DNA from: a virus | Taxonomy: Duplodnaviria > Heunggongvirae > Uroviricota > Caudoviricetes | IMG/VR virus record: IMGVR_UViG_2609459852_000006 | DNA: 7,115 nt | Strand: one strand, 5' to 3' | Shown: piece by piece, positions 1 through 7,115 of the stretch | How positions within the stretch are numbered: position 1 is the stretch's first letter | Layout of the letters: each line of letters opens with the position of its first letter | Made by a program: the position numbers and the translations under genes | Notes under the pieces: generated by a model | Seen by the model: the letters and a program-made list of their open reading frames with translations, nothing else | The model's database searches: none | What the model was told of the DNA's origin: nothing

Positions 1-265
1 CAGAAATAAATAACGCGTCGCCGGAAGCCACGTCATAAACCGTTTTACCCCGATGATCTTCAACGAGATGCCACGATGCCTCATCACTGTTGAAAACAGC
101 CACGAAGCCTGCCGGAATATCTGGCGGTGCAATATCGATACTGTTTGCTGGCAGACCTGTATGAGGCGGAATATATGCGTCACCTTCACCAATAAATTCA
201 TTAGTTCCGGCCAGCAGATTATAAATTTTTATGGTCCGTGGTTGTTCACTCATTCTGAATGCCAT
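1..265 (-). CDS. tfa: Tail fibre assembly protein (lambda Tfa-like chaperone), N-terminal 88 codons only; CDS continues past the low-coordinate edge of the window
   Basis: Manual reverse-complement translation from the ATG at 265..263 gives [88 protein letters not shown]..., which matches lambda Tfa as I recall it. No stop before position 1, so it is absent from the ORF track. The start ATG overlaps the stf stop (TAATG). An alternative in-frame ATG lies at 253..251 (MSEQ...). Confidence 0.9.
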
Positions 266-3200
266 TATGCAAGCCTCACAATATAGTTAAATGCGATGTT
301 TTTGACGGTGTTTTCCGCGTTACCAGCAGCGTTAACGGTGATGGTGTGTCCATGTGAACCAATCGCAACGGAGTGCGTATGAGCACCAATACCGACAGTA
401 TGCGCGTGTGCACCTGCAGATGCTGCTGTGCCGGACAGTGAGTGGCTATGATTACCATCTGTACTGGTATTAGCTAACCACCCCGTAGACATACCTACTG
501 AGCCTTGTACACCCCAGGTATTTTGACCTGAGCTTGTATAACCATATTGATAAGTATCTTTAAAAACACTGGGGTTAAATCGACGGCCATCTCTATGGCT
601 GTGATTACCAGCTGCATTCGTGCTGCCACTTAAACTATGGGTATGCGCACCAGTGTTATTCGTGGATTTAGTGCCGTAATCAAACGACGATGTGGTTTTC
701 GTCCCCAAATCCGTACTGGATGCGCTGGCGCTGTGGGTATGCGATTTAATGCCGTCCTGTTCCTGAGACAATACGGCCCGACCACTGGTAGGTTTGCCCT
801 TAATCGTCCAGCCACGCATATCAGGGATCACGCCTGACGGATAAGCCGCTGCAAGTTTCGGGTATGCAGATTTGTCAAAAGTCTGCCCCTGCATCAGGGC
901 ATAGCCAGACGGAACGGTATCTGATGGCCACGGGATTGGTGCGCCAGGCGGATAAAACTGCTCTGATGGCGTATAGAGTGAATAAACTGTACCGTCCGTT
1001 AACCCTTCCGGCTTATTAGCAGAATATGCTGGTGACGTATGAATCGTCACGCTGGCATTACTGGTATAATCCCATTGAATATTTACACCAGTCGCATAAT
1101 TTCCGATTGCAACGTAAATATCGTAAGTATCACCAGATGTATTGACCCAGGCAAAATTTGTAAACCCTGTCGATGTGCGCTGCCATAAAGCACCAGTAAT
1201 CCCCTTCGGATTACCATTACCTGCACGTAAAACAAGTTCAGATATACCTGCCTGTTGAGGTGACCCCACGTTAAATCCAGCGCCACCAATCAACGTAATT
1301 GAAACAACAGAACTCGCCTGTGGCATGGTTACCGTTGCTAATTTGAACCAACCAGCACCACCGCTGAATGACATTGTTGTTGAGTTAAGCGTACCAATAT
1401 CTTTCGGCGTCAGTGTTATATCCGCTGAAAGCGCCTTACCATTCACCTTACGGGCAGAAGGTACCCGACCATTCGCATTGTCATTAGCTGCTTTCACTGC
1501 TTTCGGTGTCGCAGCAAGCGTTTCAGATGTGCTGTTGGTTGCACTACTGAGCTGGACAATTCCTTTTTGTGCTGTCGTAGCGTCCTGTGCGGTGTATTTC
1601 CCGTTAGCCAGGTCATACGCGGCCTTAACGGCTTTTGGCGTTGCCGCCTGTGACTCGGAAGTGCTGTTAGTCGCACTGCTGAGCTGAACTATCCCTTTCT
1701 GTGCTGTCGTTGCATCCTGTGCGGTGTATTTCCCGTTAGCCAGGTCATACGCGGCCTTAACGGCTTTTGGCGTTGCCGCCTGTGACTCGGAAGTGCTGTT
1801 AGTCGCACTGCTGAGCTGAACTATCCCTTTCTGTGCTGTCGTTGCATCCTGTGCGGTGTATTTCCCGTTAGCCAGGTCATACGCGGCCTTAACGGCTTTT
1901 GGCGTTGCCGCCTGTGACTCGGAAGTGCTGTTAGTCGCACTGCTGAGCTGAACTATCCCTTTCTGTGCTGTCGTTGCATCCTGTGCGGTGTATTTCCCGT
2001 TAGCCAGGTCATACGCGGCCTTAACGGCTTTTGGCGTTGCCGCCTGTGACTCGGAAGTGCTGTTGGTCGCACTGCTGAGCTGTACTATCCCCTTTTTCGT
2101 CGTGCTCGCATCCTCAAGCGCCACGGCGGATGCAATATCCTCTGCCCGTTTTGCTGCTGTCTCGGCGCGCGTTGCCGCGGATTCCGCCGTACTTTTGCTC
2201 TGTGCTGCCGCTGCCGCACTGCCAGCAGCCTCTGTCGCCTTCGTGGATGCCGTCGTGGCGCTGCCCCTCGCTGCTGACGCCTGTCTGGTCGCCTCATCTT
2301 TTGAAGCAGACGCAGATGATGCCGATGACGCCGCCGAACTGGCGGACGATGCGGCAGCCGTTTTTGAGGATTCTGCGCTGGTTTCCGACGCTTTCGCGTT
2401 CGTTTCGGATGTCTTCGCTGCGGAAGCAGACCTCGCTGCTGCGCTGGCCTGTTCAGTGGCTTCGCCAGCCTTCGTTGTGGCTGTTGAAGCGGATGATGCG
2501 GCGCTTTCTGCCGATTTTCCGGCGGCGGTGGCACTGACTGCTGCCTCCTCTGCCTTAATGGACGCCTCACGGGCCGATGATGCAGCTGCTGTCTCAGAGT
2601 CTGCCGCAGCTGAGGCGCTCTGTTCCGCTGCCGTTTCAGAAGACCTGGCATTCGTCTCGGACGTTTTTGCCGCCTTCACGGAATTTCCTGCCGCCGTTGC
2701 CGAGGAGGCTGCACTGCTGGCGCTTGTGGAGGCGTTCGTTTCTGATGATTTTGCCGCCTCTTTGGAGGCCGCCGCATCTCTGGCTGAAGTGGCGGCTTCT
2801 GACGCTTTCGTCGTCGCAGTGGATGCAGAAGTGGCTGCTGATTTTTGTGACGCTGCAGCATTCGTTTCTGACGTTTTCGCCGCACCGGCACTGGTGGCCG
2901 CCGCGCTTTTTGAGGACTCTGCAGCGGCAGCACTTTTTGATGCTTCAGTGGCCTTTGTTGATGCCGTTCCTGCGCTGGAAGACGCCTCCTGAGCCGAAGT
3001 CGCGGCCTGTCCGGCTGACGTGCTGGCTGCACGCGCTGAGCCTGCAGCATCAGTCGCATGGGTTGCCGCCTCACGGGCAGATGTGCCGGCATCACTGGCT
3101 GACTTCTTCGCGGCTGCCGTGTTCTGTGCCACCGCGGACGCGTTACGCGTCACCTCTTCCACCATCAGTTCAAAACGGCGCAGAGCCTCCGGACGGGCAT

Positions 3201-3489
3201 CATCCTCCGTCATGGCACCGAGAAAATCATTCAGCGTACCGGGTCGGGAATCTTCATACACGGTGATGGTCCCGGCATGTGACGGCGGGAATCCTTCCAC
3301 CAACAGAATAACGCTGTACTGACCGTACTCAACGTCCATGCTGTAACGCCCGGCTTCATCCGGATTTTCTGAGGCCAGCGTGTTCACCACCACCGTGGTG
3401 CTGTTACGTTTTGCTTTCAGCTGGATTGTGCAGTTCTGTACCGGTTTTCCTGTGCCGTCTTTCAGTACACCTGAAATCTTTACTGCCAT
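265..3489 (-). CDS. stf: Side tail fibre protein (lambda Stf-like), intact 1074-aa single ORF; N-terminal tail-attachment domain, Ala/Ser/Thr-rich shaft, five tail-fibre repeats, divergent central segment, conserved HxH-rich C-terminal tip
   Basis: ORF track 265..3495 (-). The track's first codon is GTG at 3495..3493; the conserved start [26 protein letters not shown]... is the ATG at 3489..3487, preceded by GTGGGGTGAAT. The C-terminus ...[29 protein letters not shown] matches the lambda Stf C-terminus from memory. Stop TAA at 267..265. Confidence 0.95.
1480..2094 (-). repeat. In-frame tandem repeat inside stf: four near-identical 132-bp units (1567..1698, 1699..1830, 1831..1962, 1963..2094) plus a degenerate partial fifth unit (~1480..1566); each unit encodes a 44-aa tail-fibre repeat
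   Basis: The string gtgcggtgtattt recurs at 1587, 1719, 1851 and 1983, an exact 132-bp period. The two central units are identical by eye and the outer two differ at a few, apparently synonymous, positions. The protein shows [44 protein letters not shown] four times, then [29 protein letters not shown]. Confidence 0.9.
2095..3150 (-). other. Ala/Ser/Thr-rich low-complexity shaft region of Stf (approx. residues 115-465), GC-rich and internally degenerate-repetitive ([24 protein letters not shown] motifs recur)
   Basis: Translation is dominated by A, S, T, E and K with recurring short motifs. The same DNA yields several long spurious ORFs in other frames and on the plus strand (1988..2992, 2085..2651, 2130..2537, 2577..3266, 2676..3095), typical of GC-rich GCN-codon tracts. 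Confidence 0.8.
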
Positions 3490-3492
3490 ATT

Positions 3493-3498
3493 CACCCC
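3493..3498 (-). promoter_or_regulatory. Probable Shine-Dalgarno element for stf (minus strand GTGGGGTGAAT-ATG)
   Basis: G-rich purine tract 3-5 nt upstream of the ATG at 3489 on the minus strand; imperfect match to AGGAGG. Confidence 0.45.
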
Positions 3499-3500
3499 AC

Positions 3501-3527
3501 AAAAAAGCCCGCCTGAACCGGCGGGCT
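3501..3527 (-). terminator. Rho-independent terminator between lom and stf (minus-strand orientation)
   Basis: GC-rich inverted repeat agcccgcc (3506..3513) / ggcgggct (3520..3527) with 6-nt loop tgaacc. On the minus strand the stem is followed directly by TTTTTT (plus-strand A-run 3501..3506). Lies 26 nt downstream of the lom stop. Confidence 0.7.
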
Positions 3528-3553
3528 GTCATAACACTGTGTTACCTGGCTAA

Positions 3554-4153
3554 TCAGAACTTATAACCGACACCCACGATGAAACCGTCAGTGCGCCAGT
3601 CGCCACTGCCGGAGCCTTCATAAGCAATATCAATGGCCACGGATTCGGTCGGGTTAAACTGCACGCCAGCTCCCCACGCCAGAGACGTGTTGCTGTGGCG
3701 ACCGTCATCACTTCCGGTCAGCACGTCGTGCGTTTTCCCCTTGTTGTCAGTTACGCGGAGATAATCCCCGGAGAAAGTCGACACACGGCTGTAAGCCACA
3801 CCCGCCATCGCATACGCGCTGAACCATTCATTCACGCGCACAGACGGCCCCGCCATTACGCTGAACCAGCGGTTACGAACGGAATCTTCATGCCAGCGAG
3901 TATCGCTGTAATGGGTCAGCTGGCGATTCTTGTCTCCTGCATAGCTGAATGACGTCACCAGCCCCAGCGTATCCGTAAACTCATAACGGTATTTCACGTT
4001 AATCCCGTTCAGATCATCACTGCCGGGAACGTTGGTCCGGGCATGAAGATACCCCGCGCTCAGCGTGGACTGATGTTCAGACGCCCATGCAGGCGCACCG
4101 GATACGGCCAGACAAATGGCTGCGGACAAAATGGCGGCACAAACTTTACGCAT
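3554..4153 (-). CDS. lom: Outer-membrane beta-barrel protein Lom (Ail/Lom/PagC/OmpX family), 199 aa with N-terminal signal peptide; lysogenic-conversion (moron-type) gene
   Basis: ORF track 3554..4153 (-): MRKVCAAILSAAICLAVSGAPAWA|SEHQSTLSAGYLHA...GFIVGVGYKF. It has a signal peptide with an AxA cleavage motif and a C-terminal aromatic residue (F) typical of OMP beta-signals, and is near-identical to lambda Lom as I recall it. RBS GAGAGG 5 nt upstream of the ATG. Confidence 0.95.
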   Translation of the reverse strand: MRKVCAAILSAAICLAVSGAPAWASEHQSTLSAGYLHARTNVPGSDDLNGINVKYRYEFTDTLGLVTSFSYAGDKNRQLTHYSDTRWHEDSVRNRWFSVMAGPSVRVNEWFSAYAMAGVAYSRVSTFSGDYLRVTDNKGKTHDVLTGSDDGRHSNTSLAWGAGVQFNPTESVAIDIAYEGSGSGDWRTDGFIVGVGYKF

Positions 4154-4158
4154 AATTA

Positions 4159-4164
4159 CCTCTC
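4159..4164 (-). promoter_or_regulatory. Shine-Dalgarno element for lom (minus strand GAGAGGtaattATG)
   Basis: Plus-strand cctctc at 4159..4164 is GAGAGG on the minus strand, 5 nt upstream of the lom ATG (4153..4151). Confidence 0.6.
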
Positions 4165-4174
4165 GCTTTTCTGC

Positions 4175-4201
4175 AATAAAAAAGGCGTCATTCCTGACGC
4201 C
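4175..4201 (-). terminator. Rho-independent terminator immediately downstream of J (minus-strand orientation; position corresponds to the terminator after J in lambda)
   Basis: Inverted repeat ggcgtca (4184..4190) / tgacgcc (4195..4201) with loop ttcc. On the minus strand it reads GGCGTCAggaaTGACGCC followed by TTTTTTATT (plus-strand A-run 4178..4183). Lies 23 nt downstream of the J stop (4226..4224). Confidence 0.65.
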
Positions 4202-4223
4202 ATTTATTGGGGTTATAAATATT

Positions 4224-7115
4224 TCAACGAATACTGATGCCGGAAGCCGCTTTTTTGGTCACAATCACCGTACAGTCGGTGATATTGCCTGCCCCCTGAT
4301 TGCCTTTCTGGAAAATCTTAAACTCCAGAGTGACGCTACCACCACCACTAGGCATATCAATAACTGCACTGTAACTACCGGGAATGGCCCCTTTAGTTTC
4401 TCTGGATGCGATTAATACGCCGTTTTTGCGAACTTCAAAACCATAACCCGTGTATCGCGTGCCTCCCGGGTTATTTCCGCTCCCCGGATCGTCATACGCT
4501 ATACCGTTAAAAATAATGGGCGGAATAATAATCTGGCGGTCAAAGTTATGATCATCGCTGATGGTGACTGTAACCGTACCGTTTGGTGTTTCCGTGTTAC
4601 CCCACGTACCGACTTTTTTCGGGAAGGCTTTTGATACAGCTTTAACGAAATCCCCTCTGACCTGGGTCGCCTCCAGCATGCCCTTAATCGTACAGTTTTC
4701 ATTTACCGTGACATTGTTGAGCGTTCCTGAGTTCGCATTCACACTACCACTGATATCCGCATTTTTAGCGGTCAGCTTTCCGTCTGATGTCAGGGAAAAT
4801 ACCGGAGGACTGCCACCGCTGGTAATGGTGGGGGCTGTCAGGCGCTTCAGGAACACGTCGTTCATGAATATCTGGTTGCCCTGCGCCACAAACATCGGCG
4901 TTTCATTCCCGTTTGCCGGGTCAATAAACGCGATACGATTGGCGGCAACCAGAAACTGGCTCAGCTTGCCTTCCTCCGTGTCCTCCATGCTGAGGCCAAT
5001 ACCCGCGACATAATGTTTGCCGTCTTTGGTCTGCTCAATTTTGACGCCCCACATAGCATTCCATTTATCGTTAGCGTCCTTCCACTCTTTCGAAAACTCA
5101 TCCAGTCTGCTGGCGTTATCCTCCGTCAGGTCGACTTTTTCCAGCAGCTCTTTACCGAGATGGGATTCGGTTATCTTGCCTTTGAAAAAATCCAGGTAAC
5201 CTTCCGCATCATCGCTCGCCCGACCGACGGCCTCCACGAATGCCGATTTGCCAACGGTGTTCACACTGCGGATATAAAAGTAATAATCATGGCCCGGTTT
5301 GATATTGATACTGGCGGCTATCCAGTACAGCCCCGTGCCAAGGTAGCGGGCTGTGGTTTCAACCTGCCTGATATCGGTAATCCGCGTTTCCGAGAACCAG
5401 AACTCAAACTGTACCGTCGGATCATAAACCGCAAGATGCGGCGTGGCGGTTATCTGAAAATAGCCCGGCGTCAGCTCAATCCGCGACGGCGCTGCCGGGG
5501 CGGCAATCCGGAACGATACCGACGCCGGATCGCCCTGCTGTCCCCGGGCATTTACCGCCCGGACCGTCAGCGTGTAACGCCCCAGCGCCAGTTGCCTGAA
5601 GCGGTAAGTGGTTTCCGTCGTCCGGGCCGTGCTGACCAGCCGCTCACTGCCGTCATCGGCGGCCACGGTCAGGCGAAGCATAAAGCTCACGCCCTTCACC
5701 ACCTTCGGCGTATCCCAGCGCGCCAGCACCTGGTATTCCCCGCTGTCTGCGGTGACTTCGGCGGTCAGGTGCTGCACCGCTGGCGGCGTGACACCATTCA
5801 CCGTGCCGCTCTGGTCGCCGTCAAAGTGCGCCCCGTTATCCACGATGGCTTCTTTTTCCGGTACATGCTGCACGGCGGTGATGGCATACGTGCCGTCGTC
5901 GTTCTCACGGATACTCACGCAGCGGAACAGGCGCTGGCGCAGCGTCGGCAGCTTCAGCCCCCACACGCTGTATTCAGCAACGCCGTCAGGAACACGGCTC
6001 ACTTTCACCTTCACGCCGTCGGTGACGGACTGAACCTCCACGCTGACCGGATTGCCACTTCCGTCAACCAGGCTTATCAGCGTGGTACCGGAGGATGGCA
6101 GCGTGATTTCACGGTCGAGCGTCAGCGTCCGGGTCTGGCTGTTTACCGCCAGCACGCGACCACCGGTGCTGATACCGGCATAGTCATCATCGCAGATTTC
6201 AATGACATCGCCCGGTACATGGCGAAGCCCTTCAGCACCCACGCTGAAGTCCACGGTCTGCGTTTCCAGCAGTTCCGTTTTAATCAGCCACAGCCCGGCG
6301 CGGTGCGCCTGCCCCCGGCTGGTACAGCCAAAGGCATCCATCTTCGTGACGTTACGACCGTAACGGGCAATGGCCTGCGTATCTTCAACAAGCTCTGTCG
6401 CCGTCTCCCAGCCGTTATCCGGGTCAATCCAGTTCACCTCAACGGCATTATGGCGGTCCTTCAGGGCGCTGAAACTGTAGCGGAACGGCGCGCCATCATC
6501 CGGCATCACCACATTACTGCGGTTATAGGTCCACACCTTATCTGATGGTCGGTCCTGCACGAACGTCAGCGTCTGCCCGTTCCATACCGGCATACAGCGC
6601 ATCGCCGAGCAGAAATCACTGAGCACATCCCACGCCTTACGCTGTGTGGTCAGGTAGGCATTACAGGTGATGCGCGGCTCCGTGCCGCCAAAACCGTCCG
6701 GCACTGACTGGTCGCAGTACTGGCCGATGACATACAGCGCCCATTTATCCACATCCGCCGCACCAAGACGTTTCCCCATGCCGTAGCGCGGGTGGGTCAG
6801 CATATCCCACAGACACCAGGCCATGTTGTTGCTGTATGCCGGTTTAAACGTTCCGTCCCAGATACCGCTGTATTGCCGCGTCTGCGGGTTATAATTCGAC
6901 GGCACCTGCAGAATGCGCCCGCGCAGATGATAATTACGGCTCACCTGCTGGCTGCCGAACTGCTCCGAATCCACCTGCACGCCGACCAGTGCCGTGTTCG
7001 GGTAGCCCTGTTTCACATCGATGATTTCGGTGTATGACGACCAGAGCGTTTTGTTCTGCAGCTGGTCTGTGGTGCTGTCCGGCGTCATCCTGCGCATCCG
7101 GATATTAAACGGGCG
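4224..7115 (-). CDS. J: Tail tip host-specificity protein J (lambda gpJ-like central tail fibre), C-terminal 963 codons; N-terminus lies beyond the high-coordinate edge of the window
   Basis: The ORF track shows 4224..7097 (-) starting at an internal Met, but the frame stays open to the window edge (7115..7098 reads RPFNIR before [30 protein letters not shown]...). Long stretches such as [33 protein letters not shown] and [40 protein letters not shown] match lambda J from memory. Stop TGA at 4226..4224. Confidence 0.95.

Follow-up and report, generated by a model that had tools for sequence, protein, structure and literature searches.

The distal end of the late operon in this 7,115-nt stretch of lambdoid phage DNA (the whole of which we call the window) raises a simple question: lom lies between two hairpins, each followed by a run of T's, so how is it transcribed, and how are stf and tfa expressed downstream of both? 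A sequence-only reading of the locus had proposed an insulated moron-style cassette, and had named terminator read-through or a promoter lying within the 3' end of J as possible sources of lom transcripts. The comparison with relatives leads us to a different arrangement, to which we give a probability of about 0.72: J, lom, stf and tfa would form one late operon in which the hairpin after J (T1) is resident and a promoterless unit consisting of a short leader, lom and the hairpin after lom (T2) is optional, with lom reached by Q-dependent read-through in the lytic cycle and by leakage past T1 in the lysogen.

All four genes lie on the minus strand in the order J, lom, stf, tfa (Table 1), and the tfa ATG overlaps the stf stop codon. 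The J part matches the Pfam families Ig_J, Phage-tail_3, Phage_Tail_Tip and Ig_GpJ_C, and its C-terminus is 47% identical to that of lambda J. A program-made open reading frame puts the start of stf at a GTG at 3495; annotated relatives use the ATG at 3489 (MAVKISG...), which sits 5 nt past the GGGG RBS. Across the approximately 1.3 kb around lom, many E. coli lambdoid phages, among them 434, mEp460 and long-tailed Stx-converting phages, show 96-98% identity to the window, whose close relatives are complete lambdoid phages.

Table 1. Coordinates of the genes, hairpins and signals discussed in the text.
Feature	Position	Strand	Remarks
J, 3' part	4224..7115	-	Tail-tip host-specificity gene, 434-type C-terminus; gene runs past the right window end (ORF 4224..7097)
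Promoter-like site TTGATA-16-TAGCGT	4360..4333	-	Inside J, ~130 nt upstream of T1; top PWM score on both strands (10.3)
T1 hairpin	4201..4184	-	GGCGTCA-GGAA-TGACGCC; 7-bp stem, GGAA loop
T1 T-tract TTTTTTATT	4183..4175	-	Doubles as left endpoint of the lom indel
Optional lom cassette	~4174..3502	-	21-nt leader with RBS, lom, 26-nt spacer, T2 and its T's
lom RBS GAGAGG	4164..4159	-	lom ATG at 4153
lom	3554..4153	-	Full-length Ail/Lom protein, Pfam PF06316
T2 hairpin	3527..3506	-	AGCCCGCC-GGTTCA-GGCGGGCT; 8-bp stem with 7 G-C pairs, 6-nt loop
T2 T-tract TTTTT	3505..3501	-	Tail given as TTTTTT overall; stf RBS immediately after
stf RBS GGGG	3498..3495	-	stf ATG at 3489..3487
stf (side tail fibre)	265..3489	-	ORF; Pfam phage_tail_N, Phage_fiber_2, Collar
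tfa, 5' part (tail fibre assembly)	1..265	-	Translation; runs past the left window end

The assignment of lom to the Ail/Lom family, already suggested by the sequence-only reading, holds over the whole protein: PF06316 is matched across residues 1-199 of 199 (E 2e-123; 410 bits against a cut-off of 23). Window Lom is 96-100% identical to many prophage copies and 45% identical to lambda Lom. With these two proteins as queries we collected ~160 lom loci from IMG/VR, and the layout recurs with three types of Lom protein: that of 434, that of lambda, and a third with 61% identity to the lambda protein. The record of phage D2 (OM475427), in which J and lom appear to be fused, is partial and contains N's, and was left out. 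The G+C content of lom (54-58%) falls within the J/stf range (45-66%) and so does not deviate as that of a moron would; base composition gives no sign of a foreign origin, since lom resembles its neighbours in this respect. At ~3640, about 28 codons before the lom stop, DNA identity to lambda rises abruptly from ~50% to 90% or more, and it stays at that level through T2 into the 5' end of stf, which places the mosaic joint inside lom and not at a terminator.

Both hairpins, T1 between J and lom and T2 between lom and stf, have the canonical shape of an intrinsic terminator, a stable G+C-rich stem-loop with a T run right after the stem on the sense strand, and a consensus scan ranks them at the top, both on the minus strand. 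Taken alone, the T1 stem folds at -11.4 kcal/mol (z-score -5.2) and the T2 stem at -17.6 kcal/mol (z-score -4.4), with 0/200 shuffles equally stable in either case; folded with more of the surrounding sequence, T1 reaches -16.3 (z -4.8) and T2 -20.7 (z -2.1). The folding check named in the sequence-only reading, which would have counted against both hairpins had neither been stable, thus came out in their favour. A loose terminator pattern is not enriched in the window (6 found, 6.8 expected). Under strict criteria (a perfect stem no shorter than 7 bp, with 5 or more G-C pairs, and 6 or more T in 8), the two strands of the window together hold exactly two matches, T1 and T2, both of them intergenic and on the coding strand, at the positions where that reading had seen them; 300 dinucleotide shuffles averaged 0.02 such matches per window, and none of the 300 held two or more. 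From these features we infer that T1 and T2 are rho-independent terminators at which transcription would end. Read on the plus strand (4184-4201), T1 has the tail ATTTATTGGG and is called a weak antisense terminator by the scan; this tail is absent from the other T1 alleles, and bidirectionality is therefore not conserved.

The remark that the layout leaves no promoter room is likewise borne out, with only 30 nt from the end of the T1 stem to the lom ATG and 16 nt from the end of the T2 stem to the stf ATG. Given this lack of room, stf and tfa must rely on read-through, and late antitermination, the answer already expected for them and the established one in lambda, would presumably provide it.

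What distinguishes the two hairpins is seen in relatives without lom. A query with the segment from T2 to stf turned up phages that match only from the T-tract onward. In phage 21 (OL657228.1, L170) and Lambda_4C10 (L171), J is followed by ATTTTATAACCCAGATACG, GGCGCCAGAAATGGCGCC and TTTTTTATT, and then directly by TGTGGAGTGAATATG, the start of stf; the cassette edges in phage 21 were set by direct comparison together with BLAST coordinates. Over the 55 nt past the phage 21 T-tract, 49/55 positions match the window from 3501 downward, against 14/55 from 4174 downward, that is, in the lom leader. The exact empty J-stf junction is present in 60 IMG/VR contigs that have several J C-termini and T1 alleles as in lom-plus phages. 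These lom-less alleles include GGCGCCA/TGGCGCC and GGCACCA/TGGTGCC, with the same J stop and spacer, and with TTTTTTATT followed by the stf RBS; one 51-nt sequence covering the J end and T1 is identical between lom-plus and lom-less contigs. Because phages without lom have T1 joined to the stf RBS, T1 belongs to the J-stf junction and not to lom, and because the same T1 alleles occur without lom, only the leader, lom and T2 are optional. By this comparison, T1 is the resident terminator of the J end, standing before stf. The boundaries of the optional cassette are uncertain by 1-3 nt, since both sit in T runs.

The idea of an insulated moron-style cassette survives in part. As in a moron, lom is missing at the same junction in phage 21, Lambda_4C10 and the 60 IMG/VR contigs, and it has its own terminator, T2, inside the optional unit. 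The parts that fall away are the upstream terminator, which is resident, the deviant composition, and a promoter of its own, for the cassette includes just 21 nt ahead of the ATG and holds no promoter-like site there. With T1 resident and T2 borne by the cassette, the double bracket arises by placement: it is therefore a gene with its own terminator set beside a pre-existing terminator, and no purpose-built insulator.

What leads into stf is the same in all contexts that we inspected: a hairpin, then a T-tract, the RBS and the ATG. These contexts are lom-plus T2, the lom-less T1-type site, an alternative lom-stf spacer (L130 and L249), Fels-1 and Gifsy-1, and the hairpin sequences are unrelated to one another. 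Fels-1 has an empty J-stf junction with an unrelated hairpin and T7. In Gifsy-1 (L172 1229-1471, NC_010392) the J-stf gap holds, instead of lom, an 80-aa ORF (STM2589.1n) with a signal-peptide-like N-terminus and with hairpin-plus-T sites on either side. The alternative spacer, ~150 nt long, lies at 1822-1975 in L130 and occurs also in L083, L131, L132 and L249; it contains an extended -10-like sequence, TGGTATAAT (1857-1865), and ~60 nt on, just before stf, a 13-bp hairpin with a T-tract (1927-1956), and could give a transcript of ~95 nt. A genome-contig search with the Stf N-terminus added little diversity, as it returned mostly lambda DNA contaminating unrelated assemblies: the lambda lom-stf junction appears on low-coverage contigs of ~48.4-48.5 kb, or on fragments, in assemblies of Leeuwenhoekiella, Pseudomonas, Shewanella, Oceanobacillus, Kitasatospora and others (L236-L254 among them), where it is almost certainly lambda DNA contamination.

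T1 is also the more informative hairpin as regards sequence variation. At least 13 distinct versions occur across the three Lom types, with stem alleles that include GTCA/TGAC, ACCA/TGGT, GCCA/TGGC, ACCT/AGGT and, in lambda, CGTCCG/CGGGCG. In an alignment of the distinct versions, 96.7% of cells are paired and 5 of the 7 pairs show compensatory changes, a pattern that none of 500 shuffles matched, and registers slid along the alignment pair only 31-54%. The helix expected of an intrinsic terminator is thus upheld by compensatory substitutions in relatives, and the T-tract has at least 7 T in 9 in 13/13 distinct variants (TTTATTATA in lambda, TTTTTTATT in the other 12). This strong covariation points to selection on the T1 structure. 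T2 is near-invariant among relatives, with only G-U-preserving substitutions, and is too conserved for a covariation analysis.

Several rearrangements touch T1. In two loci they affect the T1 region some 40-60 nt ahead of lom: in L147 the loop is flipped from GAAA to TTTC while the stem is unchanged, and in L158 the left and right arms come from different alleles and form two G-U pairs, as a crossover in the loop would produce. Insertion sequences lie in or beside T1 among three IMG/VR loci with lom on the plus strand (L048 ~550-1960, L142 and L080 ~1-1960): an element with an IS4-family transposase has its junction in the T1 left arm in two independent contigs, and an element of the IS66 family stops immediately 5' of the lom RBS.

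Searches for a promoter gave little to set against these results. On the minus strand, the consensus scan gave no promoter-like site anywhere in the window. We also applied a sigma-70 PWM built from approximate hexamer frequencies, which recovers lambda pR, pL, pR' and pRM as controls; its best match in the window is the site at 4360..4333. No conserved sigma-70-like site lies within 420 nt upstream of lom, the PhoP box and sigma-E consensus are likewise missing upstream of lom (counts at chance level), and Rfam at a permissive threshold returned sub-threshold matches only, driven by the terminators. The TTGAAA hexamer that the sequence-only reading had singled out as lacking a convincing -10 element (4227..4222) indeed has only TAAATG at a 15-nt spacing, with a weak PWM score. 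A promoter in the T-tract and leader was rejected, as the window allele contains no TAnnnT hexamer there; lambda has TATTAT/TATAAA. The small RNA 24B_1, described as lying 'between lom and vb_24B_43', was set aside as well: it belongs to the 933W/Phi24B context and is absent from lambda according to its authors (PMC4426718).

Lom has been termed moron-encoded (PMC3594210), and lom could be a moron of the classical kind, driven by a constitutive promoter of its own that lies in the J 3' end or overlaps T1, with T1 as an insulator or attenuator. We regard this as unlikely. In its favour, the window's best sigma-70-like match is found upstream of lom in the right orientation, lambda lom is reported to be transcribed in lysogens (PMC1151598, PMC7067206), and the lambda T1 tail holds TATTAT/TATAAA hexamers ~7-15 nt before the RBS. 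The site at 4360..4333 may be a weak intragenic promoter, and we treat it as a candidate only; as a selected promoter it was rejected for want of conservation, since its -10 hexamer reads AAGCGT in most close relatives, AAACGT in lambda and TCACAT elsewhere, with the first T not conserved, and its -35 (TTGAYA) arises from the conserved J codons I/V-D-M. Conservation thus lends no support to the suggested promoter in the J 3' end, and promoter prediction on the minus strand upstream of lom, proposed as a check, yields an empty consensus scan and a best PWM match that is not conserved. A transcript from this site would, moreover, still meet T1, and everything upstream of 4174, including the J 3' end and the T1 alleles, recurs in phages without lom and hence has no specific tie to lom. 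As for lambda, its T1 is shorter and weaker than the window's (6 bp with a G-U pair, -9.0 kcal/mol, tail TTTTATTAT) and carries the hexamers that the window allele lacks, so lambda data may not transfer to the window's 434-type allele, and lysogenic lom expression in lambda may rest on a basis that this allele lacks. The lambda data themselves are mixed, an array study having failed to detect lom in the lysogen while noting that little is known of the lom promoter (PMC2147009); where PMC9836094 cites Liu et al. 2013, it describes lom as strongly expressed in the lytic cycle.

Other readings take the hairpins to do something besides termination. Their main task in the late mRNA might be to stabilise RNA 3' ends or to be sites of processing, setting the ratios of J, Lom and Stf, with termination secondary. 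The selection apparent on the T1 structure would suit such a role, as would the hairpin-plus-T sites of the lambda late operon at E-FI (L085 7163-7180) and I-J (15465-15480), which lie among essential genes, positions at which complete termination, were there no antitermination, would be lethal; terminator-like late-operon elements are, by these examples, not confined to the flanks of lom. The T-rich tract right after the stem in every variant is a terminator hallmark that a stabiliser would not need, though, and a hairpin with T's is kept before every stf inspected despite unrelated sequences, which makes a primarily stabilising function quite improbable; the two roles are not mutually exclusive. 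We consider it very improbable that the hairpins are DNA-level recombination joints or insertion targets at module boundaries whose resemblance to terminators is secondary. The indel endpoints in the T-tracts, the recombinant and inverted-loop versions of T1, and the IS4-family and IS66-family insertions in or beside it all fit that idea. Against it, the compensatory changes in T1 tolerate G-U, which indicates that pairing in the RNA is what is selected, as a G-T pair would be unstable in a DNA cruciform; the T-tract is found only on the coding strand; and the mosaic joint between window and lambda falls inside lom (~3640), not at T2. The embedded-promoter, stabiliser and DNA-level explanations are all less well supported than read-through past resident T1 and cassette-borne T2.

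Under that preferred arrangement, Q-modified polymerase from pR', which like the Q gene and the qut site lies outside the window, would ignore T1 and T2 during lytic growth, by analogy with established lambda biology, and all four proteins, J, Lom, Stf and Tfa, would come from a single transcript. In the lysogenic state, polymerase that lacks the Q modification and sets out from weak sites within J would mostly be halted at T1, leakage past T1 could express lom, and T2 would halt the leaked transcripts, with stf and tfa staying silent. The unit of leader, lom and T2 would have been gained or lost by an event with endpoints in both T-tracts. Since the cassette is promoterless, lysogenic lom expression in lambda is not explicable by a promoter that the cassette brings along, and the question of the lom promoter narrows to leakage through T1 or a weak start in the last 400 nt of J. 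We extend this picture only tentatively, holding it possible but doubtful, to the lom of lambda-type siphophages in general, as promoterless cargo behind resident T1, with T1 as an attenuator whose leakage sets the lysogenic level, and with the J-stf terminator as a general docking site whose cargo (lom, or the Gifsy-1 80-aa secreted protein) is swapped by T-tract recombination.

Much of this architecture is familiar from characterized phages. Read-through of terminators by Q-modified polymerase is textbook lambda biology. Phages 434 (OL657226.1) and mEp460 (JQ182728.1) are 96-97% identical in DNA to the window over 3300..4600, and their GenBank records annotate terminators at the positions homologous to T1 and T2; the 434 T1 stem is GGCACCA/TGGTGCC where the window has GGCGTCA/TGACGCC, a set of compensatory differences, and otherwise essentially nothing differs. 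Lambda itself has the window's gene order across J-lom-orf401 (NC_001416, 18903-19650), with a hairpin and T-tract after J (18920-18935) and another after lom (19612-19633), sites that the lambda records do not annotate as terminators. Tandem late-operon terminators distal to lambda J, t'J1 to t'J4, were reportedly described by Luk and Szybalski (1983, Mol Gen Genet 189:289). Phage 21 and other lom-less lambdoids agree with lom-plus phages in the J 3' end, the T1 allele, the T-tract and the stf RBS and start, and the phage 21 hairpin at the place of T1 is annotated as a terminator; this type differs from the window in having neither lom nor T2, and hence one terminator where the window has two.

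The comparison with morons, as defined for HK97 and HK022 (Juhala et al. 2000; reviewed in PMC3594210), runs both ways. Like those genes, lom is an optional late-operon gene that is absent in close relatives and has its own terminator, and its lambda orthologue has been reported to be prophage-expressed and beneficial to the host; unlike them, the window's lom has no promoter of its own in the 21 nt before its ATG and is similar in composition to its neighbours. The lom of 933W/Phi24B-type Stx phages offers a further contrast. It encodes an Ail/Lom homologue of ~41% identity and is followed by a hairpin and T7 terminator, but it sits in a different tail module behind an AT-rich upstream region of ~90 nt, and its expression is reported to be constitutive and uncoupled from phage regulation (PMC3342100, PMC4651098), which makes it a textbook moron and sets it apart from the window copy. 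T1 and T2 are therefore real, ordinary and, in 434 and mEp460, already-annotated architecture. What the comparison clarifies is that the optional unit comprises leader, lom and T2, is promoterless, and owns one of the two terminators, and that the J-stf terminator appears to be a recurrent site of cargo exchange in E. coli and Salmonella prophages, its cargo including virulence-associated outer-membrane proteins.
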